IMG/VR virus record: IMGVR_UViG_3300043788_000063 | DNA: 37,152 bases | Direction: 5' to 3' (one strand) | Source: a virus | Translations under genes and position numbers: made by a program | Part shown: positions 10,777 to 21,576 of the stretch, in pieces | How positions within the stretch are numbered: the stretch's first letter is position 1 | Layout of the letters: every line of letters starts with the position of its first letter | Notes under the pieces: model-generated | Seen by the model: the letters and a program-made list of their open reading frames with translations, nothing else | Database searches by the model: none | What the model was told of the DNA's origin: nothing

Positions 10777-11150
10777 AAATCTGCGACACGCACTGGCAGG
10801 CACTACGAAAAGCGATTGACGACCGTGGGCTGACCCGTTTCATCTCCAAGGACGGCGAGCAGGCGTCCCAGAACATGGTCGCCCAGCTTCAGGGCGAGGA
10901 CACCAAAGACCATTACGATCCTCTGATGGCTGCGGTGTTCGCAATCTGGGGCAACGCGATCGAGGCGTTCGGTCTGGACATCATGCGACCTGAAGCGCCG
11001 TGCCCTTTGTGCGTCCTTGACCAGCACGTCAAAGAATGCACCGATGAGACATGCACCATGAAGCAGAGCGGATCGGACTGGATCGGCTACGCGGCCGACG
11101 GTCAGATTGACGCGGCGACGGAACTGGGTCTACTGGGGAAACCGAATTGA
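10773..11150 (+). CDS. Hypothetical protein (125 aa)
   Basis: ATGA overlap with the upstream stop. Confidence 0.5.
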   Translation: MKICDTHWQALRKAIDDRGLTRFISKDGEQASQNMVAQLQGEDTKDHYDPLMAAVFAIWGNAIEAFGLDIMRPEAPCPLCVLDQHVKECTDETCTMKQSGSDWIGYAADGQIDAATELGLLGKPN

Positions 11151-11158
11151 ACGAGGAA

Positions 11159-11326
11159 ATGTCAGTTCAGGAGGAGAAAGAAGCGCTGCGCAAGAAGGTT
11201 CGCAACGAGACCATTGACGAGCTTTGCACTTGGCTCTCTTCCTGCATTGAAGCGGTGGATCATAACACCGAGACCTACAAAGCATGCACCGCAATGGTCA
11301 ACGCGATGAAGGGCAAAAAGATATGA
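11159..11326 (+). CDS. Small protein (55 aa, not in the ORF track because it is <60 aa)
   Basis: ATG with GAGGAA upstream. The stop overlaps the next ATG (ATATGA). Confidence 0.3.
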   Translation: MSVQEEKEALRKKVRNETIDELCTWLSSCIEAVDHNTETYKACTAMVNAMKGKKI

Positions 11327-11499
11327 GGCTTGAAAAACAACTGCACGATGACCTTGAACAGGTCGCTGCTGAAGTGGCAAGCTGGCCCGAATGGAAGCGC
11401 AGCTTGCAGCCGTGCTCCTGTCTCCGCGAGGGAATCCTTGACGACGGCAAGCACCCGCAGAGGGATTGCCCTAAGTGCGACGGCACTGGACTATGCTAA
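11323..11499 (+). CDS. Small Cys-rich protein (58 aa; CSC...CPKCDGTGLC)
   Basis: ATG 11323 within ORF track 11284..11499. Confidence 0.4.
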   Translation: MRLEKQLHDDLEQVAAEVASWPEWKRSLQPCSCLREGILDDGKHPQRDCPKCDGTGLC

Positions 11500-11702
11500 G
11501 AAAATTTCTGTGTTTCATCGGGCTGCACAACCCTGAGATTACCCGCAAGGTTTTCTGGGGGAACGTACACCACGCCGAATTGAAGTGCGTCTGCGGCAAG
11601 AGGTACGAGGCATTTGTGGCGGGAACCGTTGGGCGGTTATACCCAGCCAAGACGCCGTCAGATTTCTGGGTCGCATGGGACGCCTTCCGCCCCGAAAATT
11701 AG
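11493..11702 (+). CDS. Small protein (69 aa; CVCGK motif)
   Basis: The ATG overlaps the upstream stop (ATGCTAA). Confidence 0.4.
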   Translation: MLRKFLCFIGLHNPEITRKVFWGNVHHAELKCVCGKRYEAFVAGTVGRLYPAKTPSDFWVAWDAFRPEN

Positions 11703-11705
11703 CTA

Positions 11706-11734
11706 TTGACAGAAATCCGAATTCGCAGTACTAT
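11706..11734 (+). promoter_or_regulatory. Sigma70-like promoter TTGACA-N17-TACTAT
   Basis: Consensus -35 hexamer and a 4/6 -10 at exact 17-nt spacing, immediately upstream of a short ORF and ~180 nt upstream of the tRNA array. Confidence 0.5.
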
Positions 11735-11749
11735 ATGAGAGTGAACAAC

Positions 11750-11851
11750 ATGACTTCAAGGAAACCCAATACGATTGCCCGCAAGGGCGCAAGCCAGTGG
11801 CGGAATCGCCATTTCGGCGTGGGTCTTTCCTTGGAAGGATGGGACGACTAA
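11750..11851 (+). CDS. Possible 33-aa basic peptide between its own promoter and a terminator
   Basis: ATG 11750 (an alternative ATG lies at 11735). No clear SD; it may instead be a non-coding leader. Confidence 0.25.
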   Translation: MTSRKPNTIARKGASQWRNRHFGVGLSLEGWDD

Positions 11852-11879
11852 GTCCTGATCCAAACCAAGTTTGAAACGA

Positions 11880-11909
11880 CCCGCTAACCGAAAGGTTCAG
11901 CGGGTTTTT
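11880..11909 (+). terminator. Rho-independent terminator
   Basis: 10-bp stem CCCGCTAACC/GGTT(C)AGCGGG with a GAAA loop, followed by TTTTT. Confidence 0.8.
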
Positions 11910-11914
11910 GCTTT

Positions 11915-11989
11915 AGGGGAGTCATTCAACGGCTAGGATGGCGGTCTCCAAAACCGCTCATGGGGGTTCGAATCCCTCCTCCCCTGCCA
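11915..11989 (+). tRNA. tRNA-Trp (anticodon CCA), CCA end encoded
   Basis: Hand-folded cloverleaf: acceptor AGGGGAG/CTCCCCT, anticodon stem GCGGT/ACCGC, loop CTCCAAA, T-arm GGGGG-TTCGAAT-CCCTC. Confidence 0.8.
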
Positions 11990-12014
11990 AATTTTGCAGT
12001 AACGAAGGGAATTT

Positions 12015-12645
12015 ATGGAACTGAAACTAGAAGCTTCTCAAGCGCGAGGGACCCGCATCCTGCGGGGACAGACGGCTGCCCGGAGACGTCTTCATCTCGT
12101 CTAACCTCGCATTGAGAGCGACGGAAGCCGGGTACGAGGAAATCGTCCTTCCGTCGCTTGAGCCAGCCGCGATCTACGCTGAGAAGGCTGGTAATGAAGT
12201 TCTGGGGCAGATGTACACGTTCCCAGACAAGAAAGGCAGGCAGCTTTGCCTGCGACCGGAAGGGACGGCGACTTGCCAGATACTCGCCGACACGGTGCTG
12301 AAGTCGGAGCGGGACGTGAAGCTCTGGTATCTGGCGACCTGCTGGCGCTACGAGCGGCCGCAGGCGGGGCGTTACCGGGAATTCTTGCAGTTCGGCGTTG
12401 AGGTCTTGAACCCACGCCAAGATATGCGGGACGAACTGGTGGAGTTGGCGACGAGCATGGTCGGGATGTTCACCGACAAGTTTGAAGTCAGCAAAGCAGT
12501 GAAGCGTGGGCTGGCGTACTACGTTGAGGACGGCTTTGAGATAAGTTGCCCGGCGTTGGGAGCACAGAAGCAAGTCTGCGGCGGCGGGTCGTACAAGCAG
12601 GGATGCGGTTTCGCATTCGGCGTAGATCGGCTGATGTTGGTTTAA
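12015..12645 (+). CDS. Minimal histidyl-tRNA synthetase-like catalytic core (~210 aa). It is interrupted by a +1 frame change near 12100-12112 and lacks the insertion and anticodon-binding domains.
   Basis: Frame 0 (ATG 12015) encodes MELKLEASQARGTRILRGQTAARRRLHLV*, which resembles the HisRS N-terminus.
Frame 1 (from 12031, TTG 12112) encodes ...AGYEEIVLP...QMYTFPDKKGRQLCLRPEGTA...LWYLATCWRYERPQAGRYREFLQFGVEVLN (class II motif 2 / HisRS motif).
This runs directly into KRGLAYYVEDGFEISCPALGAQKQVCGGGSYKQGCGFAFGVDRLML (HisRS GGGRYD plus motif 3 GFAxGxxRL). Confidence 0.7.
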
Positions 12646-12649
12646 CGAT

Positions 12650-12727
12650 GGTGGCGGTCGTCTAGAGGCTTAGGACCCCTGACTGTGACTCAGGTGATCG
12701 TGGGTTCGAATCCCATCCGCCACCCCA
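12650..12727 (+). tRNA. tRNA-His (anticodon GTG) with genomically encoded G-1 and C73
   Basis: G(-1)+GTGGCGG acceptor pairs with CCGCCAC, followed by C and CCA. Anticodon arm CCTGA-CTGTGAC-TCAGG. T-arm GTGGG-TTCGAAT-CCCAT. Starts 5 nt after the HisRS-like stop. Confidence 0.85.
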
Positions 12728-12733
12728 AATTTC

Positions 12734-12811
12734 GTCCGTGTAGCTCAGTTGGATTAGAGCGCTTCCCTCCGAAGGAAGAGGTCGTGAGTTCGAGTCTCAC
12801 CATGGACACCA
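12734..12811 (+). tRNA. tRNA-Arg (anticodon CCG)
   Basis: Acceptor GTCCGTG/CATGGAC. Anticodon stem CTTCC/GGAAG with loop CTCCGAA. CCA encoded. Confidence 0.8.
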
Positions 12812-12816
12812 GAGTT

Positions 12817-12996
12817 ATGAGAGAGACGACTGAGTATCCGCCGTTCCAGATCAGGTGCTCCAAATGCAACAAGGAGCCGGGTCAGTGCTGTGGTAGGTGG
12901 GACGGGGCACCGTATGCGTGCATGGATCGTGTGAAAGCTGCGGAAGAGATATTCGGGAAGTTCAGGTACAAGGACGGCAAGTACGTGCGTGTGTAG
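12817..12996 (+). CDS. Possible small zinc-ribbon protein (59 aa) between tRNAs
   Basis: ATG 12817; CSKCNKEPGQCCGRWDGAPYAC. The 3' end overlaps the next tRNA by ~10 nt, so the call is weak. Confidence 0.25.
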   Translation: MRETTEYPPFQIRCSKCNKEPGQCCGRWDGAPYACMDRVKAAEEIFGKFRYKDGKYVRV

Positions 12997-13063
12997 CTCA
13001 GTTGGATAGAGCGCTACTCTGCGAAGGTAGAGGTCGGCAGTTCGATTCTGCCCATGCGCACCA
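12987..13063 (+). tRNA. tRNA-Arg (anticodon GCG)
   Basis: Acceptor GCGTGTG/CATGCGC (two G-U pairs). Anticodon stem CTACT/GGTAG with loop CTGCGAA. T-arm GGCAG-TTCGATT-CTGCC. CCA encoded. Confidence 0.7.
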
Positions 13064-13073
13064 AGTTTACAGA

Positions 13074-13151
13074 GCCGGGTTAGTCATTGGACATGACAGC
13101 ACGTCTTCGAAACGTGCATATTTACGGGTTCGAATCCCGTACCCGGCTCCA
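13074..13151 (+). tRNA. tRNA-Arg (anticodon TCG)
   Basis: Acceptor GCCGGGT/ACCCGGC. Anticodon stem (G)CACGT/ACGTG(C) with loop CTTCGAA. T-arm ACGGG-TTCGAAT-CCCGT. CCA encoded. Confidence 0.7.
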
Positions 13152-13236
13152 GAGTTTGGTCTGGCGCACGCTGGTGCCAGCGAAAGTGAAGGTTGCCGTA
13201 ATCAGTCGCCCTTCAACCGAGTGGTTTTGCAAGTAC

Positions 13237-13314
13237 GCGCCCGTAGCTCAGCGGAATAAGAGCACTTCGCTACGAACGAAGGGGTCGGGAGTTCGAATCT
13301 CTCCGGGCGCACCA
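13237..13314 (+). tRNA. tRNA-Arg (anticodon ACG)
   Basis: Acceptor GCGCCCG/CGGGCGC. Anticodon stem CTTCG/CGAAG with loop CTACGAA. CCA encoded. Confidence 0.8.
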
Positions 13315-13326
13315 GTTTTGTGCTGA

Positions 13327-13402
13327 TGAGGCGTGGTCCAATCGGTAGGACGCCGCACTGTTAATGCGGATGGTGAAGGTTCGAGTCCTTCCGCCTCAGC
13401 CA
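13327..13402 (+). tRNA. tRNA-Asn (anticodon GTT), copy 1
   Basis: Acceptor TGAGGCG/CGCCTCA, G73. Anticodon stem CCGCA/TGCGG with loop CTGTTAA. CCA encoded. Confidence 0.7.
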
Positions 13403-13419
13403 ATTTTGCAGTAACATGT

Positions 13420-13494
13420 TGGGGTGTGGCTCAATGGTACAGCAGGTGACTGTTACTCACCCATTTGCAGGTTCGAGTCCTGCTGCCCCAGCCA
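13420..13494 (+). tRNA. tRNA-Asn (anticodon GTT), divergent copy 2
   Basis: Acceptor TGGGGTG/TGCCCCA (two G-U pairs), G73. Perfect anticodon stem GGTGA/TCACC with loop CTGTTAC. T-arm GCAGG-TTCGAGT-CCTGC. Confidence 0.6.
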
Positions 13495-13510
13495 AGTTTA
13501 GGAGGATGCG

Positions 13511-13774
13511 TTGCGAGTAGATGCTCCAGAGATCGTCAGGGTTGAAGATCGGGCGGTGCTTGAGCCGCTCGCCCAGCGCGGTCTGGCGGCGCATGAGCGG
13601 CTGCGGACAGCACGGGCAGCCCTAGCCGAGGCTCGGCGGATTGAGTACGCCGCAGAGATAGAACTTGCTCAGGCTGAGCGTGAGTACGCCGCCGTGAACC
13701 GGGAGATTGTCGGTGCCGGATACCACGACACAGGACACGTCGTGGGCTATTTGAAGAGTTCAGTTCCTCGGTAG
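13511..13774 (+). CDS. Small helical (Ala/Glu/Arg-rich) protein, 87 aa, between tRNAs
   Basis: GGAGG (13501-13505) is 5 nt upstream of TTG 13511. The 3' end overlaps the next tRNA by a few nt. Confidence 0.4.
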   Translation: MRVDAPEIVRVEDRAVLEPLAQRGLAAHERLRTARAALAEARRIEYAAEIELAQAEREYAAVNREIVGAGYHDTGHVVGYLKSSVPR

Positions 13775-13839
13775 CTCAATGGTGGAGCAGACGGCTGTTA
13801 ACCGTAAGGTTGTGTGTTCGACTCACACCCGAGGAGCCA
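13765..13839 (+). tRNA. tRNA-Asn (anticodon GTT), canonical copy 3
   Basis: Acceptor TCCTCGG/CCGAGGA, G73, CCA. Closely resembles E. coli tRNA-Asn. Loop CTGTTAA. Confidence 0.8.
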
Positions 13840-13924
13840 AGTTTCAGAGTTTGAGCGACCAGATCGCAGACGGCAACTTCGTTCAATGGAGGGCGATGAT
13901 CCAAAGCGGCGGACGCTCAAAGAC

Positions 13925-14003
13925 GGGTACGTAGTGTTTAACGGATTAGCACAGCAGCCTCTTAAGCTGTCGAGTGTGGGTTCAAATCCCACCGTACCCA
14001 CCA
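13925..14003 (+). tRNA. tRNA-Lys (anticodon CTT), copy 1 (long D-loop)
   Basis: Acceptor GGGTACG/CGTACCC. Anticodon stem GCAGC/GCTGT with loop CTCTTAA. T-arm GTGGG-TTCAAAT-CCCAC. CCA encoded. Confidence 0.6.
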
Positions 14004-14027
14004 AATTTGTGGTATTGTAGGGTTTTC

Positions 14028-14103
14028 GGGCTGCTAGCTCAACTGGTAGAGCATTCGACTCTTAATCGACAGGTTCCGAGTTCAAGCCTCGGGCAGCCCA
14101 CCA
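14028..14103 (+). tRNA. tRNA-Lys (anticodon CTT), copy 2
   Basis: Acceptor GGGCTGC/GCAGCCC. Anticodon loop CTCTTAA. T-arm CCGAG-TTCAAGC-CTCGG. CCA encoded. Confidence 0.75.
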
Positions 14104-14117
14104 AGTTTTTAGAGTAT

Positions 14118-14141
14118 TAGGGTTTAGCTTCCTAAGCCCTA
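14118..14141 (+). promoter_or_regulatory. 10-bp hairpin between tRNA-Lys and the HNH gene RBS
   Basis: TAGGGTTTAG-CTTC-CTAAGCCCTA (one G-U pair), directly upstream of GGAGG (14146-14150). Confidence 0.35.
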
Positions 14142-14157
14142 GATAGGAGGACAGGAC

Positions 14158-14703
14158 ATGCCTGACGTACTGGTACTGGATTCAAACTACCGTCCCATCG
14201 GCTTCAAGTCGTGGCAGGACGCTGTGAAGAATGTGTTTGAGGATCGCGCTATCGTCATCAAGGAAGACGAGAGCGGCGCGAAGCTTCACTCCCCGTCCTT
14301 TGAGATGGGCATGCCCCGTGTCATCCGTGTGCGTAACGCATGGGTGAAGCGCCGGAAGACTTCTGTCCCGTTCAGTCGCCGGAACATCTACATCCGCGAC
14401 AGCGGTGAGTGCCAGTACTGCGGCAAGCACCTCAAGACGGACGAGTACACGCTTGACCACGTGGTTCCGCGCTCGCAGGGCGGAATCTCAAGCTGGGCTA
14501 ACCTTGTCCTGTGCTGCGTGCGCTGCAACAAGCACAAGGCCGGACAGACACCGCAGCAGGCTCACATGCCGCTTCTGAGCAAGCCTGTTACACCGAAGGT
14601 TGATGATCCGAAGTACAACTTCAAACTCCACATTAGGAAGCTTCGGCCGGAGTGGAAAGAGTGGGCCGACTGGTTGTACTGGAACATTGAAATAGACGAG
14701 TAG
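14158..14703 (+). CDS. HNH endonuclease (181 aa) embedded in the tRNA array
   Basis: CQYCGKHLKTDEYTLDHVVPRSQGGISSWANLVLCCVRCNKHK is a canonical HNH motif. RBS GGAGG upstream. Confidence 0.75.
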   Translation: MPDVLVLDSNYRPIGFKSWQDAVKNVFEDRAIVIKEDESGAKLHSPSFEMGMPRVIRVRNAWVKRRKTSVPFSRRNIYIRDSGECQYCGKHLKTDEYTLDHVVPRSQGGISSWANLVLCCVRCNKHKAGQTPQQAHMPLLSKPVTPKVDDPKYNFKLHIRKLRPEWKEWADWLYWNIEIDE

Positions 14704-14711
14704 GTTAAAGA

Positions 14712-14733
14712 CCCGGAGGAGTAATCCTCCGGG
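14712..14733 (+). terminator. Terminator-like hairpin (9-bp stem, GTAA loop, weak U-tract)
   Basis: CCCGGAGGA-GTAA-TCCTCCGGG followed by CAAAATTTCT. Confidence 0.4.
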
Positions 14734-14743
14734 CAAAATTTCT

Positions 14744-14820
14744 GGCCCCGTAGTTCAGTGGAATAGAACGCAGGTTTCCTAAACCTGATGTCGCAGGTTC
14801 GAGTCCTGCCGGGGTCACCA
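14744..14820 (+). tRNA. tRNA-Arg (anticodon CCT)
   Basis: Acceptor GGCCCCG/CGGGGTC. Anticodon stem CAGGT/ACCTG with loop TTCCTAA. CCA encoded. Confidence 0.75.
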
Positions 14821-14827
14821 AGTTTGA

Positions 14828-14874
14828 GTTGCACGAAAATGTGCAACAAGCAGGAATTGCACGAAAGTGTGCAA
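14828..14874 (+). repeat. Two tandem near-identical palindromes, TTGCAC-N6-GTGCAA
   Basis: GTTGCACGAAAATGTGCAAC (14828-14847) and TTGCACGAAAGTGTGCAA (14857-14874), with centres ~30 bp apart. Confidence 0.6.
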
Positions 14875-14878
14875 CTGT

Positions 14879-14952
14879 TGGGAGATCGTCCAATGGTAGG
14901 ACACGCGCCTCTGGAGCGTGGAATCTAGGTTCGAGTCCTAGTCTCCCAGCCA
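14879..14952 (+). tRNA. tRNA-Gln (anticodon CTG)
   Basis: U1-A72 acceptor TGGGAGA/TCTCCCA, G73. Anticodon stem CGCGC/GCGTG with loop CTCTGGA. CCA encoded. Confidence 0.7.
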
Positions 14953-14957
14953 AATTT

Positions 14958-15113
14958 ATGACGATGCTTGAAGCATATTTTGATGAATTGCTCGCCCGGA
15001 TGCAGACACCAGAGTGGCGTGCGGCTGCCCAGCGGGCATTTGACGCAACGCCCGAAGAAATTGGCAAAGCGGCAGTGGAACATGCTGGACAAAACCGTGA
15101 AAGTGCGGTATAA
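14958..15113 (+). CDS. Possible small protein (51 aa)
   Basis: ATG 14958 immediately after the tRNA-Gln 3' end. Overlaps the internal promoter. Confidence 0.3.
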   Translation: MTMLEAYFDELLARMQTPEWRAAAQRAFDATPEEIGKAAVEHAGQNRESAV

Positions 15114-15114
15114 T
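15086..15114 (+). promoter_or_regulatory. Sigma70-like promoter TGGACA-N17-TATAAT inside the tRNA array
   Basis: Exact hexamers and spacing. ATG 15124 lies 10 nt downstream of the -10. Confidence 0.5.
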
Positions 15115-15123
15115 GGTCACAAG

Positions 15124-15297
15124 ATGAACTCCACGCTGAAGACGATCCTGAAGGTCACGGCGGCGGCGATTGTGCCAGGTGCGGCGATCTTTCTAGTCGG
15201 AGCATGGCTCCTGAAGGATCGTGAGAAGGAAGAATTCAGGAAGTACATTCGCAGTACCTACGGTGACGGAAGCAATTATGTGGACAATTACCGCTGA
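15124..15297 (+). CDS. Possible small membrane peptide (57 aa)
   Basis: Hydrophobic stretch KVTAAAIVPGAAIFLVGAWLL. A further overlapping 37-aa hydrophobic ORF lies at 15278..15391. Confidence 0.3.
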   Translation: MNSTLKTILKVTAAAIVPGAAIFLVGAWLLKDREKEEFRKYIRSTYGDGSNYVDNYR

Positions 15298-15405
15298 CGA
15301 TCTCATCAACTACGGCGCTCTAGCGACGATGCTGCTTGGCGTCTATGGGCTTTACCTCGCTTACACCTACCCCGCACGAAGAAAACGCTAACCACAATTT
15401 AATCT

Positions 15406-15488
15406 GGGCGTGTAATCGGGGGAGTCTTCTAAACTCTTAGCCGTAACTGGAATTGAAAATGCGAGTTCGACTCTCGCCACGCCCACCA
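15406..15488 (+). tRNA. Atypical 83-nt tRNA-like gene, possibly tRNA-Arg (anticodon TCT), with a degenerate D-arm and a 23-nt extra region
   Basis: Canonical acceptor GGGCGTG/CACGCCC, A73 and CCA. T-arm GCGAG-TTCGACT-CTCGC. The only 5-bp/7-nt stem-loop is GGAGT-CTTCTAA-ACTCT. Only 8 nt separate the acceptor from the anticodon stem. Confidence 0.35.
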
Positions 15489-15497
15489 ACCTTTTTG

Positions 15498-15573
15498 GGA
15501 GCGTAGCTCAATCCGGCAGAGCACTCGCCTTTTAAGCGAAACGTTGTGGGTTCAACTCCCACCGCTCCCACCA
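15498..15573 (+). tRNA. tRNA-Lys (anticodon TTT), copy 1
   Basis: Acceptor GGGAGCG/CGCTCCC. Anticodon loop CTTTTAA. T-arm GTGGG-TTCAACT-CCCAC. CCA encoded. Confidence 0.8.
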
Positions 15574-15578
15574 AATTT

Positions 15579-15655
15579 TGGGTCGTTACGTCAACTGGTA
15601 GACTACTCGCCTTTTAAGCGATGGAATCTCGGTTCAAATCCGAGGCGACCCACCA
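15579..15655 (+). tRNA. tRNA-Lys (anticodon TTT), copy 2
   Basis: Acceptor GGGTCGT/GCGACCC. Anticodon loop CTTTTAA. T-arm CTCGG-TTCAAAT-CCGAG. CCA encoded. Confidence 0.75.
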
Positions 15656-15664
15656 AACTCTTCC

Positions 15665-15931
15665 CTAAACCTCAATGCAGATACCCCAAATGCCGGAGTG
15701 TTCTTCAAAGCAATCCTTACAGTCACAGCACCTAAATGCCGTCATTTCGTCGGCGTTGATGTACTTGAATGGGCCTTTGCTTATGTGCCACCCACGCTTC
15801 CGCCCGCAGACCTCGCACGTGTAGAGTCCACGCTTAAGCCCCCGCCTCAGCTTCTCTTCTTGGTCAAGTTCCCTGACCTCACGGGCGATTATGCGGTTCA
15901 ACGCTTGCAGTTTTTTGGGTAGGTTTTTCAT
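15665..15931 (-). CDS. Small HNH-like zinc-finger protein (88 aa), distal gene of the minus-strand cassette
   Basis: CEVCGRKRGWHISKGPFKYINADEMTAFRCCDCKDCFEEH fits a CxxC..H..N..CxxC..H pattern. The ATGA overlap (15928-15931) couples it to the upstream gene. Confidence 0.45.
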   Translation of the reverse strand: MKNLPKKLQALNRIIAREVRELDQEEKLRRGLKRGLYTCEVCGRKRGWHISKGPFKYINADEMTAFRCCDCKDCFEEHSGIWGICIEV

Positions 15932-16203
15932 TCCAGACCTCCAATGTTCAGGTCCTTCAGGAACTTCTTATCCGCCTCAGTCACCTTCGGAGGATCATTG
16001 AACACCCAGCGGTTCGGGGACACTTCCACTTTCATGTCCGAAGTCGCGACCAGTGTTTTGTCGCAGGCTTCAATCAGAAGAAACATGGTCACGGCATCAA
16101 GCATCTTTGACAAATGCTTAGCGCTTACAGGTATGAAGGTTTCGCTATGGAGCTTGCCCTCGGTCTCATCGCCTTCTTGTGCAACTTTAATGGTGATTTT
16201 CAT
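15928..16203 (-). CDS. Hypothetical protein (91 aa), first gene of the minus-strand cassette
   Basis: GGAGG is 7 nt upstream of the ATG on the minus strand. Confidence 0.5.
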   Translation of the reverse strand: MKITIKVAQEGDETEGKLHSETFIPVSAKHLSKMLDAVTMFLLIEACDKTLVATSDMKVEVSPNRWVFNDPPKVTEADKKFLKDLNIGGLE

Positions 16204-16308
16204 TTTGTGACCTCCCAGTCACCGCATCGCCTTGGATGGCATCCACCGTGGCCTCTCGGCTCGGTTGGCGAACCCGCGCTTGGCGGATTCCTTCTTGATG
16301 CTTTGTAT

Positions 16309-17443: not shown

Positions 17444-17474
17444 ATATCTTCCCGATGTAGTGCATACTTGGGTC

Positions 17475-18761
17475 ATGAAGAAAGAGATGACCCTCCTCGG
17501 TCTGATCGCCGCCACGTACTTCATGGTGTCGGGCGGGCCTTACGGACTTGAAGACCTCATAGCTGAAACTGGCTACGGGCTGGGCATCCTCATCCTGATC
17601 CTCGTGCCCGTTCTCTGGGCGATGCCGACAGCGCTGATGGTCGGTGAGCTTGCTTCTGCAATCCCCGACAACGGCGGTTTTTACGTCTGGGTCAAGCGTG
17701 GGCTAGGAAGGTTCTGGGGATTTCAAGAGGCTTGGCAAACGCTCGCCTCGTCCGTGTTTGACATGGGCTTGTACCCCCTCCTTTTTGTCAGCTACCTCGG
17801 CACCCTAGCCCCCAATCTAATCGCGGGATGGCACGGTCCAGCCATCGGTACCGCCCTCGTCGCAGCCTGCCTCGGATGGAATATGAGAGGCGCAAAGGCT
17901 GTGGGTGATGGTTCGGTAGGCTTCGGGGCGCTGATGGTCTCTCCGTTCGCCGTACTCGCAGCAATGGGCATCTGGCACGCCCATCGTGATGCCGTGACGA
18001 TAGCGGCACAGCATCACCCGCACCCGGCGCTGGTCGCCGGGATTTTGGTCGCCATGTGGAACTACATGGGGTGGGATAATGCCAGCACCATTGCTACCGA
18101 AGTTGAGAACCCCCGCCGCACATACCCCCTCGCCATGTTCTGGACGATGGTCGCCATCGTCGCTACCTACATCATCCCTGTCGTGGCGGCATGGCGCTTT
18201 GGCATCCCGCTGTCCGCATGGTCAACCGGAAGCTGGGCGACAATCGGTGGAGCCATCGCAGGCCCGCTGATTCGTGACGCGATCGTCGTCGGCGGCATGA
18301 TCTCGGCCGCGGGACAACTCAACTCCCTGATGATGAGCTACTCCCGCCTGCCGGGCGCACTGGCTGAGGACGGCTTCCTGCCGAAAGTTTTCACGAAGGT
18401 CAACAAGGCTGCCGTGCCGATGATCGCGCTCTTCGCCTTGAGCACCGTTTGGCTGGCTGCCATTGGGCTGAACTTTGACAGGCTAGTCATGCTGGACATC
18501 CTGCTTGCCGGGAGCAGCATCGTGTTGGAGTTCGTCGCACTGGCTGTCCTCCGCTGGAAAGAACCTGATCTTCTGCGTCCGTTTGCTGTGCCTGGTGGCA
18601 AAGTCGGGGTGATCATCTGCGGCATTCTGCCCACGGCGTTGCTGATCGGCGCTGCTATTTTCTGCGATCATGCTGGGGTTGCAATCGGCGTCGGCACGAT
18701 CCTCGCCGGGTTCGTGACTTACTGGGGCGTAAGGACATACGGCCGCATCCACTGTAAGTAG
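17475..18761 (+). CDS. APC-superfamily amino-acid/polyamine permease-like transporter (~429 aa, multi-TM)
   Basis: The N-terminus LIAATYFMVSGGPYGLEDLIAETGYG and the 12-TM hydrophobic profile are typical of APC permeases. The start could alternatively be GTG 17460. Confidence 0.6.
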   Translation: MKKEMTLLGLIAATYFMVSGGPYGLEDLIAETGYGLGILILILVPVLWAMPTALMVGELASAIPDNGGFYVWVKRGLGRFWGFQEAWQTLASSVFDMGLYPLLFVSYLGTLAPNLIAGWHGPAIGTALVAACLGWNMRGAKAVGDGSVGFGALMVSPFAVLAAMGIWHAHRDAVTIAAQHHPHPALVAGILVAMWNYMGWDNASTIATEVENPRRTYPLAMFWTMVAIVATYIIPVVAAWRFGIPLSAWSTGSWATIGGAIAGPLIRDAIVVGGMISAAGQLNSLMMSYSRLPGALAEDGFLPKVFTKVNKAAVPMIALFALSTVWLAAIGLNFDRLVMLDILLAGSSIVLEFVALAVLRWKEPDLLRPFAVPGGKVGVIICGILPTALLIGAAIFCDHAGVAIGVGTILAGFVTYWGVRTYGRIHCK

Positions 18762-18805: not shown

Positions 18806-20335
18806 GTGACTGCGATCAACCAAAAAGTGAATCATTGGCAACACGGCTCTGGAATTGTGGTTGAGATTTTAGAAGAGTGCGTGAGGGTGGCGTTTGAGTC
18901 AGGGCAAATCAGAAATTTAGCGGAGGACAATCTGACTGACGAAAACGACGATCCCTTGGAGCCACAGCTACGTGTTAACGTAACCACCGTTCCGAAGCCG
19001 ATTCTACCAGCCGTCCCCGAGGGATTTGTTCCCATAGGTCTGCCCGCCCCCGCATCCACCGTCATTCCCGTGGTTCTCAACGGCGACCGCATATCTCTCC
19101 TCGGCAATTGTTTGGAGGTTATGAAAGGTATCCCATCCAAGTCCATCGCATTCATGTTCGTTGGACTCCCCTACGGAGCTACTGAAATGGAGTGGGACAA
19201 GCCGTTCAAGCAAAGAAAATATCTGCGTGCATGGCTCGTGGAGTTTTGGGCGGAAGTCAGACGCATAATGATGGACGGAGGCGTCGTCTGCTGCCAAGCG
19301 GCTGAAACGCTGATCTACGAGAAGAATCGTCCTGTCGGAACTTTCGCCACGGAGTTGAAGAACTCCAATTCGGACAGCTACCTGTACTCCTACATTTGGG
19401 TCAAACAGCAGCCCTCTGACTGGCATGCGGTCAAAAAAGGTGTGCTTCTCCGCCCCCGGCGCAAACACGAAGTGGTCGTCACTTTCTGCATAGGCAGCCG
19501 CACCCCGAGAGTTTTCAATGAGTGGAAGTCAAAGACCAACCCCGTCTCTGGGTATGACAGCGAGGGTCGTGCAACGAATGGAGTCATGTGGGGGCCAAAC
19601 ACAAACAGCAACCACAAAGACAACCCGCTCGGTCTCCGCTACCTTGAAGACGTAATTTACATGTCAACCGACCGATCAACTCGGGATGAAGAAGCCCGAA
19701 GTGAGGAGGGTCTTGAGGAGAAAGCTGACACGCCAAATCCGATAGCGCTGCCTTGGCTGTTTGCAAAAATATACTCCAACGAAAACGAGTGGTGCCTAGA
19801 CCCGACGATGGGAACTGGAACCAGTGTCCTCGCCTTTATCCACGCCGGGCGCAAGGGCATGGGAATAGAGCTTGAAAAGGACACCTTTGAAGGCGCTGAT
19901 CGGGCTATTGCTTCTGCCACGTTTGGTGACGACCGCATAGAACAAGCAGAAGCCTTGCGGACGAATAACTTCTCCGAACCCGCAGCATGGGTGGAGTGCG
20001 CCGTGGAACTGGACCGCCTTCAGACGGAGTTCGACAACCGCATCTTGGTCTTCGTGAAGAGACATTCCGATAAGGGAGAGGGAATAACCAGCACGTACTT
20101 GGCTAAGGAAACAGTCTCCGATGGTCATCAAGTTCGGGGTTGCCTCGCACGCCTAAAAAACGCCGGACTGGTCGTAAGTGTCAAGCAAGAGAAGGGCGCA
20201 AATCTTTGGTATGAGAAGGGCGCAGCGACGACTCTGGCTGGACTACTGTCCGCCCTCTTCAACATTGAGGACGAGGTTGAAACCGAGGCCGTTGTTGAAG
20301 AAACCAAAGCGGATGCGGCCGCTGCCGGAGACTAA
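18806..20335 (+). CDS. DNA methyltransferase (N6-adenine or N4-cytosine; motif IV precedes motif I) with a ~90-aa N-terminal extension
   Basis: LLGNCLEVMKGIPSKSIAFMFVGLPYG matches the motif IV (DPPY-like) region. CLDPTMGTGTSVLAFIHAGRKGMGIELEKDTF matches motif I FxGxG. The start codon is uncertain (GTG 18806). Confidence 0.7.
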   Translation: MTAINQKVNHWQHGSGIVVEILEECVRVAFESGQIRNLAEDNLTDENDDPLEPQLRVNVTTVPKPILPAVPEGFVPIGLPAPASTVIPVVLNGDRISLLGNCLEVMKGIPSKSIAFMFVGLPYGATEMEWDKPFKQRKYLRAWLVEFWAEVRRIMMDGGVVCCQAAETLIYEKNRPVGTFATELKNSNSDSYLYSYIWVKQQPSDWHAVKKGVLLRPRRKHEVVVTFCIGSRTPRVFNEWKSKTNPVSGYDSEGRATNGVMWGPNTNSNHKDNPLGLRYLEDVIYMSTDRSTRDEEARSEEGLEEKADTPNPIALPWLFAKIYSNENEWCLDPTMGTGTSVLAFIHAGRKGMGIELEKDTFEGADRAIASATFGDDRIEQAEALRTNNFSEPAAWVECAVELDRLQTEFDNRILVFVKRHSDKGEGITSTYLAKETVSDGHQVRGCLARLKNAGLVVSVKQEKGANLWYEKGAATTLAGLLSALFNIEDEVETEAVVEETKADAAAAGD

Positions 20336-20397: not shown

Positions 20398-20661
20398 ATG
20401 TCCAATACCAACGCACTCAAGAACATCATCATCACCACGCTGTTGCTCAACGGCGGCACCACAACGTCAACCACCGTGTACACCGCGGTCGGTTCCGTAT
20501 TCCCGTCCTTGAAGAAGAACTTTGACGACTTGACTTACAACGTCCGGTGGGCACGCATGTCGCTGGCCGAGGCTGGTCTGGTTGAGCAGAGCAAGGTCCG
20601 GGGTGAGTGGTCGCTGACGTCAGCAGGACGCAAGGCTGCACGCGCCCTCTTCACAGCGTAA
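20398..20661 (+). CDS. Stand-alone Mrr-N-like winged-helix protein (87 aa)
   Basis: YNVRWARMSLAEAGLVEQSKVRGEWSLTSAGRKA resembles the Mrr restriction-enzyme N-terminal wHTH domain (IRWAR..L..AGL....RG.W.LT..G). Confidence 0.5.
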   Translation: MSNTNALKNIIITTLLLNGGTTTSTTVYTAVGSVFPSLKKNFDDLTYNVRWARMSLAEAGLVEQSKVRGEWSLTSAGRKAARALFTA

Positions 20662-21576
20662 GCGATCCACGGCGGCGATTCGTTCACCAATCCAACGCAT
20701 GACGGGGACTGCCATTGAGTCCCCGAGTACCTTGTACCTCGCAGAGTCCGTTGCGGTCTTGGTAGGGATAGCGGTGTATCCGGGCGTGAATCCCATCAGC
20801 TTCTCGCACTCTTCTGGTGTGAACCTGCGGGGTTCCTGACCAGGAACGAGCACAGCCTGAGTCTGCGACAGAATCAGAGGGTTGGAGATTCCTTCTCGTT
20901 CTGCGAAGTTTCGTCCTTCTTGGTGGTTGAAGGAGATGATTGACTCGCTACTTTCTCCAGCGCCGTCCGCAGACGTGGGCTGAGCTTCACCTTGTAGCGC
21001 TTGTCCTGTGCCCGGTTCAAGATTCCCTGACAGGCAGCCGGACTCAAAAAGCACTGCGGCGGCAGGTCGCCAGTCTCCAAGATGTCCGACAATGTAGACA
21101 CGACGTCTAATCTGCGGGACTCCGAAATAGCGAGCGTCCAGCACTCTGTAAGAGAACCCATACCCGAGTTGCACCAGCGCCCCGAGGATGGTTCCAAACG
21201 CCCGTCCGGCGTCAACACGCAAGACGTTGGGGACATTTTCCCAAACGATCCATCGGGGTTTTTTGATGTCAGCGAGTCGTAGAAACTCAAGGGCGAGGAT
21301 GCCCCGAGGGTCAGCGAGTCCTTCTCTGACTCCTTGGAGGGAGAAGGATTGGCAAGGGGTGCCTCCGACGAGTAGGTCAATTCGTTCTTGCTTGAAGATT
21401 TCGTTGTCATAAAGTTTGGTCATGTCTCCAAGGTTCGGAACGGTGTAGCGATGAGCCAGCACGTCGTTTGGGAATGCACCGATCTCGGAAAACCAAGCTG
21501 CCTTCCAGCCGAGCGGTTCCCACGCCACGCTGGCTGCTTCTATTCCCGAGCACACACTGCCGAACCGGATACTCAT
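20620..21576 (-). CDS. DNA (cytosine-5)-methyltransferase, orphan (318 aa)
   Basis: Motif I FGSVCSGIEAAS, motif IV GGTPCQSFS, motif VI ENV (IVWENVPNVL). No adjacent restriction endonuclease gene. Confidence 0.85.
   Translation of the reverse strand: MSIRFGSVCSGIEAASVAWEPLGWKAAWFSEIGAFPNDVLAHRYTVPNLGDMTKLYDNEIFKQERIDLLVGGTPCQSFSLQGVREGLADPRGILALEFLRLADIKKPRWIVWENVPNVLRVDAGRAFGTILGALVQLGYGFSYRVLDARYFGVPQIRRRVYIVGHLGDWRPAAAVLFESGCLSGNLEPGTGQALQGEAQPTSADGAGESSESIISFNHQEGRNFAEREGISNPLILSQTQAVLVPGQEPRRFTPEECEKLMGFTPGYTAIPTKTATDSARYKVLGDSMAVPVMRWIGERIAAVDRLRCEEGACSLASC

Follow-up and report, generated by a model that had tools for sequence, protein, structure and literature searches.

A putative programmed +1 frameshift at a histidine codon in a minimal histidyl-tRNA synthetase gene family of giant phages

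The rate at which histidine codons are decoded is the signal in his-operon attenuation, where a run of His codons in the hisL leader decides between termination and antitermination of transcription. In the gene for release factor 2 (RF2; prfB) a slow A-site codon acts on the reading frame: the site consists of a Shine-Dalgarno (SD) sequence GG_GGG (sometimes GG_AGG), CUU_U and UGA as codon 26, and how often the ribosome shifts depends on the RF2 level (PMC5009743). At the CUU AGG C sites of Ty1 and ABP140, and in Gallant's 'hungry codon' experiments, CUU in the P site is followed by a slow sense codon in the A site, and peptidyl-tRNA-Leu slips by +1 (PMC5009743). Here we describe a locus in the IMG/VR virus record IMGVR_UViG_3300043788_000063, a stretch of 37,152 nucleotides (nt) analysed as a whole and referred to below as the window. 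Two overlapping frames at 12015-12645, when joined, give a protein of 209 amino acids (aa) that resembles the catalytic core of histidyl-tRNA synthetase (HisRS), in agreement with the figure of about 210 aa in an initial reading made without database searches (the sequence-only reading). We consider it probable that a programmed +1 ribosomal frameshift at 12090-12095 gates this mini-HisRS, with a His codon in the A site acting as sensor of charged tRNA-His (His-tRNAHis).

The zero frame runs from ATG 12015 to TAA 12102-12104 and specifies a 29-aa product, MELKLEASQARGTRILRGQTAARRRLHLV. The +1 frame is open from 12031 to its stop TAA at 12643-12645, and its earliest canonical start is TTG 12112 (177 aa). 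The gene sits inside a same-strand array of 15 tRNAs (11915-15655, ARAGORN), directly 3′ of tRNA-Trp, and is followed by a tRNA-His in which G 12650 (G-1) stands opposite C 12724 (C73), as the sequence-only reading had recognised; the spacer between stop codon and G-1, which it gave as 5 nt, is 4 nt (CGAT). The elements of the locus are as follows.

11915-11989 (+): tRNA-Trp, 25 nt 5′ of ORF1; first gene of the tRNA array
12004-12010 (+): SD-like GAAGGGA, seen on direct reading; initiation element of the zero-frame ORF1
12015-12104 (+): ORF1, zero frame; codons 1-26 (12015-12092) form the conserved HisRS N-terminus MELKLEASQARGTRILRGQTAARRRL; unshifted end at TAA 12102-12104
12082-12086 (+): internal SD-like GGAGA, presumed frameshift stimulator, ending 3 nt 5′ of the shift codon
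12090-12092 (+): shift codon CTT (Leu, codon 26), on which the P-site tRNA-Leu is proposed to re-pair +1 with TTC
12093-12095 (+): zero-frame His codon CAT (codon 27), in the A site at the shift; C 12093 would be the skipped base
12094-12645 (+): +1-frame body, ISSNLALRATEAGYEE...GFAFGVDRLMLV and stop; catalytic core with motifs 1-3, RPEGTA, RGLAYY and GGGSY
12651-12727 (+): tRNA-His(GTG), with G-1 from 12650; C73 is 12724 and CCA is encoded

The evidence for a functional frame change is comparative. Ninety-five related loci were fetched and 91 were classified, the window counted in. The sequence-only reading had raised the question of intact single-frame homologues, and such genes are common: the N-terminus (RG[TV]R[IL]…RR) is in frame with the body in 47 loci, and the other 44 need a shift, which is +1 in all 44 and -1 in none. 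Clustering of the shifted loci gives 17 groups at an identity threshold of 80% and 11 at 70%, and the lowest identity between two of them is 43%. A cultured virus, Sinorhizobium phage Phosso, is among them, and on a neighbour-joining tree shifted and single-frame genes are intermixed. The N-terminus encoded in the window is homologous to that of the single-frame relatives (MELKIEQQVRGTRIL..RRR). Products made by fusing the two frames, with the join falling between Leu and Ile, show no gap at that point when aligned with single-frame relatives, and neither does the window product when aligned with E. coli HisRS. Pairwise differences 5′ of the site, sorted by zero-frame codon position, number 835/637/1206, and those 3′ of the site, sorted by +1-frame codon position, number 782/717/1411, with the peak at position 3 on either side. 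By this comparison both halves of the gene are under purifying selection, each in its own frame.

The zero-frame start has a strong SD sequence 5′ of it, and an SD-like element was seen at this place in nearly every shifted relative. The first +1-frame start 3′ of the site lies anywhere from codon 1 to codon 39 in the shifted loci, none of them with a conserved ribosome-binding site (RBS), and +1-frame stops occur upstream of the site in many of these loci. Phosso illustrates how such genes have been annotated. At its locus (L001, PV764938.1, 3916-4558) the GenBank coding sequence XYS97181.1, 'histidyl-tRNA synthetase', begins in the +1 frame at 3968 (MQSTPSEVVFIE…); the conserved N-terminus MLRGTRVISGNEARAYTNAIDTLRGCL is encoded in the zero frame from ATG 3916, behind AAGGAGG, and the shift site TGT CTT CAT lies at about 3991-3999. 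The same mis-called +1-frame start was found in many database proteins of the mini-HisRS family.

Within the overlap of the zero and +1 frames, the sequence [C/G]TT-CAY was present in 35 of 35 distinct shifted versions. The shift codon is CTT in 32 of these and GTT in 3, the base that follows is always C, and the A-site codon is CAT (28/35) or CAC (7/35). No [CG]TT-CAY was found among the 12,774 in-frame dicodons of the gene bodies, which hold 21 His codons in total and in which CTT accounts for 18% of Leu codons. In one lineage (L086), the shift must fall within 14 nt that contain TGT CTT CAT: two +1-frame TAA triplets lie just 5′ of the site, and CAT is followed at once by a zero-frame TGA. 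The cassette occupies four positions in the gene (alignment columns 65/66, 70, 74 and 79), which suggests repeated invention or relocation. At every one of them, the slip-site Leu is followed by Ile or Thr (ATN/ACN), and single-frame relatives mostly have Leu, Glu or Gln. Changes between CAT and CAC swap Ile and Thr in the +1 frame and keep the zero-frame His; this pattern indicates that the zero-frame His codon is itself under selection.

Sequences 5′ of the shift codon also distinguish the two groups of genes. The commonest shifted arrangement is CGG AGG CGT CTT CAT, which comprises GGAGG, a 3-nt spacer, CTT and the His codon. An SD-like pentamer lies no more than 15 nt 5′ of the shift codon in 26 of 32 shifted genes, compared with 4 of 39 single-frame genes at the homologous place, and the Arg codons at the stimulator are fixed as CGG AGG in shifted genes and mixed in single-frame genes. 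The site in the window reads GGAGA CGT CTT, and the full pattern was found there only once. Taken across the relatives, a recoding cassette at 12090-12095 is well supported. The +1 direction given by the sequence-only reading agrees with these data; its placement at 12100-12112 does not, the relatives putting the site at CTT CAT, 12090-12095. That reading had left a programmed +1 frameshift, a sequencing error and a pseudogene side by side, and the comparative data favour the programmed frameshift and argue strongly against the other two.

In the mechanism that we propose, ribosomes would initiate at ATG 12015 and read 26 zero-frame codons, which would place CUU (12090-12092) in the P site and CAU (12093-12095) in the A site while the SD-like GGAG(G/A) 3 nt 5′ pairs with 16S rRNA. 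If His-tRNAHis arrives slowly, peptidyl-tRNA-Leu would move from CUU to UUC, reading would continue in the +1 frame to 12645, and the enzyme would be made. If it arrives fast, CAU would be decoded and translation would stop two codons on, yielding the 29-aa peptide. Since decoding of CAU competes with the slip, the share of ribosomes that make enzyme should rise when charged tRNA-His is scarce, and the result would be a feedback loop as in prfB, with a 'hungry' sense codon replacing the stop. We infer that ribosomal slippage changes the frame; the A-site His codon probably senses the supply of His-tRNAHis. Other ways of joining the frames were considered and rejected. Transcriptional slippage would call for a homopolymer run, which CTTCAT does not have; against stop-codon reassignment, the zero-frame continuation past TAA (PRIESDGSRVRGNRPSVA) is not homologous to HisRS; and termination with reinitiation at ATY is at odds with ACN at that place in 7 of 35 sites and with the absence of a conserved start.

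The composition of the product is in keeping with such a sensor. Histidine is absent from all 34 of 34 fused products and from 30 of 41 single-frame proteins, and the mean His content of the family is 0.14%, compared with 2.8% in window ORFs of at least 150 aa. Because the fused products contain no His, the sensor CAY would be the only His codon met by a productive ribosome, and the near absence of this residue fits an enzyme made when His-tRNAHis is short.

The mini-HisRS gene resembles prfB, with its site AGGGGG/GGAGG - 3 nt - CUU UGA C, in several ways. ORF1 is short in both, at about 25 codons (up to the shift codon, 26 in the window and 23-35 in relatives), and has an RBS of its own; the functional body is in the +1 frame; the shift codon is CUU, with an internal SD-like element 3 nt 5′; and how often the frame changes would depend on how fast the A-site codon is decoded. 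The differences lie in the A-site codon, which is CAY (His) in 35/35 instead of UGA; in the zero-frame stop, which in shifted relatives comes 0-13 codons past CAY at a position that is variable and not conserved; in the re-pairing codon, UUC instead of UUU; and in the product, which is synthetase-like, whereas prfB encodes a release factor. Any mini-HisRS feedback would therefore act through aminoacyl-tRNA supply and not through release factor level. Ty1, ABP140 and Gallant's constructs share with the site P-site CUU, a slow sense codon and the +1 slip of peptidyl-tRNA-Leu, but they are eukaryotic or laboratory cases, have no SD stimulator and owe their slowness to a rare tRNA. The mini-HisRS loop would be homeostatic because its A-site codon is cognate to the amino acid of the encoded enzyme. 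The hisL leader uses the same signal as that proposed here, with transcription termination or antitermination as output; mini-HisRS would use one His codon and a choice of frame.

The protein itself was compared with profile models and with structures. Alone, the +1 ORF matched TIGR00442 (hisS) with E 3.6e-42 (145-147 bits, split over two stretches), and addition of the zero-frame N-terminus extended the match to model position 3 (E 7.6e-43). The Pfam models tRNA-synt_His and tRNA-synt_2b scored 73-74 and 46 bits. At 147 bits, the hisS score of the window protein is under the curated cut-off of 286.75 and so below the family threshold; the score with hisZ (TIGR00443), 80 bits against a cut-off of 271.65, comes from model positions 22-120 of 314 only, and the view that the protein is unlike HisZ finds support here. 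In the alignment to E. coli HisRS, query residues 15-144 correspond to chain residues 14-147 and query 156-194 to chain 251-289; E. coli residues 148-250, the insertion domain, are unmatched, and query 145-155 bridges the gap. From these blocks, about 100 insertion-domain residues are replaced by about 11. The C-terminus GFAFGVDRLMLV extends 7 residues past motif 3, with the tRNA gene 4 nt on, and since the protein ends directly after motif 3 the anticodon-binding domain is absent as well. Both absences had been noticed in the sequence-only reading, as had HisRS motifs that alignment to the hidden Markov model bears out. Motif 2, RYERPQAGRYREF (also WRYERPQAGRYREF), and motif 3, GFAFGVDR, are kept; alignment to the E. 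coli and A. baumannii enzymes identified the histidine-binding signatures and the catalytic Arg (RPEGTA, RGLAYY, GGGSY), and residue-level alignment indicated that the acceptor-end residues of motif 2 are retained. An AlphaFold 2 model of the fused 209-aa product had a pLDDT of 91.3, and its top PDB matches in Foldseek were HisRS catalytic domains (1KMN, 1ADJ, 4RDX; TM 0.80-0.87), with HisZ ranking behind. Homology and predicted fold together identify the gene product as a histidine-free class II catalytic core of HisRS, without insertion and anticodon-binding domains.

Mini-HisRS has in common with full-length HisRS (TIGR00442; PDB 1KMM, 4RDX) the catalytic fold, motifs 1-3, RPEGTA, the R/Q cluster of motif 2, RGLxYY and GGxY, and differs from it in its length (209 versus about 420 aa) and in being nearly His-free. 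HisZ and mini-HisRS are both HisRS paralogues without the anticodon-binding domain, but the insertion region, present in HisZ (models of 282-434 positions), is missing from mini-HisRS, which retains the catalytic motifs. We would expect mini-HisRS to activate histidine and to charge tRNA-His through the G-1:C73 acceptor end. In the T. thermophilus HisRS complex an Arg pair of motif 2 holds the acceptor stem, and the contacts made by the insertion domain are non-conserved, the tested mutants retaining most activity (PMC4357726). A tRNA-His-directed function is favoured by the acceptor-end residues of motif 2, by these T. thermophilus contacts and by the adjacency of tRNA-His. Nothing indicates that enzyme and tRNA are orthogonal, because the G-1:C73 identity set of the neighbouring tRNA-His is the one usual in bacteria, and the suggestion of a private synthetase-tRNA pair in the sequence-only reading finds no support here. 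The full proposal is a natural, widespread 'hungry-codon' riboregulator in which a phage synthetase gene senses its own tRNA charging through one A-site His codon and the product, a histidine-free minimal HisRS, charges tRNA-His by its core alone. We put it forward tentatively, as possible and somewhat short of probable.

A lone early frame change is the commonest sign of error or decay, and the window is probably a metagenomic assembly with no near-identical phage record; megablast of window 11000-16000 against phage records gave no match. The gene could on these grounds be a pseudogene, or be broken by an assembly or sequencing indel of 1 nt, with nothing useful made. Comparative data contradict this: the same +1 need recurs in 44 loci from many samples, spanning 17 clusters at 80% identity and the cultured phage Phosso, with no -1 case; both halves are under purifying selection, and the junction hexamer is invariant. 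We regard error or decay as scarcely credible. It is also quite improbable that there is no frameshift and that the protein starts inside the +1 frame, at TTG 12112 or at the upstream ATGs of relatives, with a shortened or overprinted N-terminus and the zero frame as a leader peptide or remnant. Although gene callers and GenBank annotate the genes in this way (P0001-P0024; Phosso XYS97181.1) and some relatives do have a +1-frame ATG (MHKRE...), the first +1 start wanders between codons 1 and 39 without a conserved RBS, many loci have +1-frame stops 5′ of the site, and substitutions upstream fit the zero frame, whose peptide keeps the RGTR..RR motif common to HisRS. Starting at TTG 12112 would in addition delete most of model helix 19-37, and an internal start leaves the invariant [C/G]TT-CAY and the GGAGG unexplained.

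Two further explanations accept the shift and question its control or its product. The +1 shift may be real but constitutive or triggered otherwise, by a quadruplet tRNA reading CUUC or at a fixed low efficiency, with the His codon incidental. Giant phages carry large and unusual tRNA sets, a CUU codon behind an SD is prone to shifting by its nature (PMC5009743), and most sites have Ile (ATY) as the next +1-frame codon, so that CAT arises automatically in the zero frame. We nonetheless judge this unlikely: the 15 window tRNAs include no tRNA-Leu and all have ordinary three-base anticodons (ARAGORN), CAC variants keep His while Ile becomes Thr, single-frame relatives prefer Leu, Glu or Gln at that position, and a near His-free family fits synthesis under His-tRNAHis shortage. 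More weight attaches to the possibility that the protein does not charge tRNA at all, being a regulator like HisZ or an enzyme that adenylates histidine for another acceptor, and that the frameshift is unrelated to tRNA-His charging. Two of the three HisRS domains are gone, the hisS score of 147 is under the cut-off of 286.75, bacterial copies stand alone among uninformative neighbours, and some copies bear the NCBI label 'ATP phosphoribosyltransferase regulatory subunit'. Yet hisS outscores hisZ by 147 to 80 bits, all motif 2, motif 3 and histidine-binding residues are kept, the insertion-domain contacts tested in T. thermophilus are non-conserved and largely dispensable (PMC4357726), the gene recurs beside tRNA-His genes and inside tRNA arrays, and a gate that opens at low His-tRNAHis makes sense for an enzyme that produces His-tRNAHis. 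A non-charging protein is on balance the less likely outcome, and one to be reckoned with.

Several points weigh against a His-gated frameshift or against a charging enzyme. In RF2-derived reporters, a sense codon in the A site shifts much less than a stop unless its tRNA is limiting, and the frameshift output may for that reason be low or largely constitutive. Half of the family, bacterial chromosomal copies included, works without a frameshift. The stimulator in the window, GGAGA, is weaker than GGAGG, and an SD-like element is lacking in the lineages L028, L086, L094 and L006; 3′ of the window site, RNA folding gave no significant structure (z = -1.1), and we propose no downstream stimulator for this reason. 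GUU variants of the shift codon would re-pair less well in the +1 frame, and CAY conservation could partly reflect a preference for Ile after Leu. An enzyme that lacks the insertion and anticodon-binding domains may bind tRNA less well, which leaves the substrate putative, and the trans-frame protein and its regulation are so far predictions.

The family reaches well beyond the window. A protein search returned 3,675 matches at E<1e-10, of which the best 120 are all 144-255 aa long. Members were found on phage contigs of 350-575 kb, on the cultured 469-kb Sinorhizobium phage Phosso, and on bacterial chromosomes, where they are single-frame, stand-alone genes (Hahella, Massilia and a Kangiellaceae metagenome-assembled genome, MAG). 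The bacterial loci with a single-frame mini-HisRS of about 210 aa are as follows.

L096, 6001-6642: Massilia aquatica
L176, 8001-8630: Hahella chejuensis
L098: Kangiellaceae MAG

On these matches, mini-HisRS is a large conserved family of giant phages and some bacterial chromosomes. Among full-length enzymes, the nearest relatives found are HisRS from archaea (36-41% identity). A pattern scan of genome contigs with CLRPEGTAT and CWRYERPQ returned mostly full-length archaeal HisRS, because these patterns occur there too, and only three bacterial mini copies. NCBI calls some copies from Hahella and Aurantivibrio 'ATP phosphoribosyltransferase regulatory subunit', apparently a misnomer; that of Massilia bears the name 'hypothetical protein'. 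Bacterial neighbourhoods (Massilia, Hahella) offered no functional clue. The Hahella neighbours listed include no histidine-biosynthesis Pfam families and the window neighbours seen are tRNA genes, no search directed at hisG having been made. Among phages, a 448-kb contig (L177) is syntenic with the window, and the order Trp - miniHisRS - His - Arg... is kept in close relatives. Genes for tRNA-His with G-1:C73 adjoin mini-HisRS in several lineages, downstream in the clade of the window and upstream in others. A 2022 review of synthetase paralogues has HisZ as the sole entry for HisRS (PMC9437257), and a paper on huge phages mentions neither histidyl enzymes nor frameshifts (PMC7162821). The open-access literature searched held no relevant prior description of a frameshifted or minimal HisRS; an earlier account elsewhere is possible.

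Other features of the window were recorded around the tRNA array. The array includes five tRNA-Arg isoacceptors, one of which, tRNA-Arg(TCG) at 13074-13151 (+), is an ARAGORN call with no Rfam tRNA match at gathering score. ARAGORN ends lie 3 nt past those of Rfam, consistent with encoded CCA, which was read directly for tRNA-His only. An HNH endonuclease gene lies within the array at 14158-14703 (+) and is in the same place in the syntenic 448-kb contig. Just 5′ of tRNA-Trp is a GC-rich hairpin with a T-run (about 11880-11912, +), and a promoter-like TTGACA-17-TACTAT (10/12 matches) was seen farther 5′ at 11706-11734 (+). Just 3′ of the array, an amino-acid permease of 433 aa (17460-18761, +; AA_permease_2, E 2.5e-40) may bear on amino-acid supply in infection. 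An Rfam match to the SAM-I/IV riboswitch at 16191-16306 (-) scored 43.4 bits against a gathering score of 41.1 and may be spurious, because its strand is opposite to that of most genes. Elsewhere in the window are an ORF of 820 aa at 4019-6481 (+) with matches to MVP_shoulder (E 3.1e-25) and Vault_3 (E 4.8e-10) in Pfam, which encodes a major-vault-protein-like protein of this giant phage, and genes for DNA methylases of the N6/N4 type (18806-20335, +) and the C5 cytosine type (20620-21576, -).

If the proposed mechanism is correct, the locus would represent RF2-type autoregulatory frameshifting in a new form, gating an uncharacterised minimal HisRS family, and would be of more interest than a broken gene. 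A naturally occurring autoregulatory +1 frameshift would have a sense codon, cognate to the enzyme being made, where RF2 has its stop, and the supply of aminoacyl-tRNA would directly set the choice of frame. Gene callers and GenBank would then start these genes wrongly in the +1 frame, as in Phosso XYS97181.1, and GGAGG-NNN-CTT-CAY could serve as a search key for their re-annotation; the cassette might also provide a compact amino-acid-responsive switch for engineering. For the family, a large and unstudied set of HisRS cores of about 210 aa would bear on how small a class II synthetase can be and still recognise tRNA-His through G-1:C73, and for the phages that carry them, on the ways in which translation is buffered.

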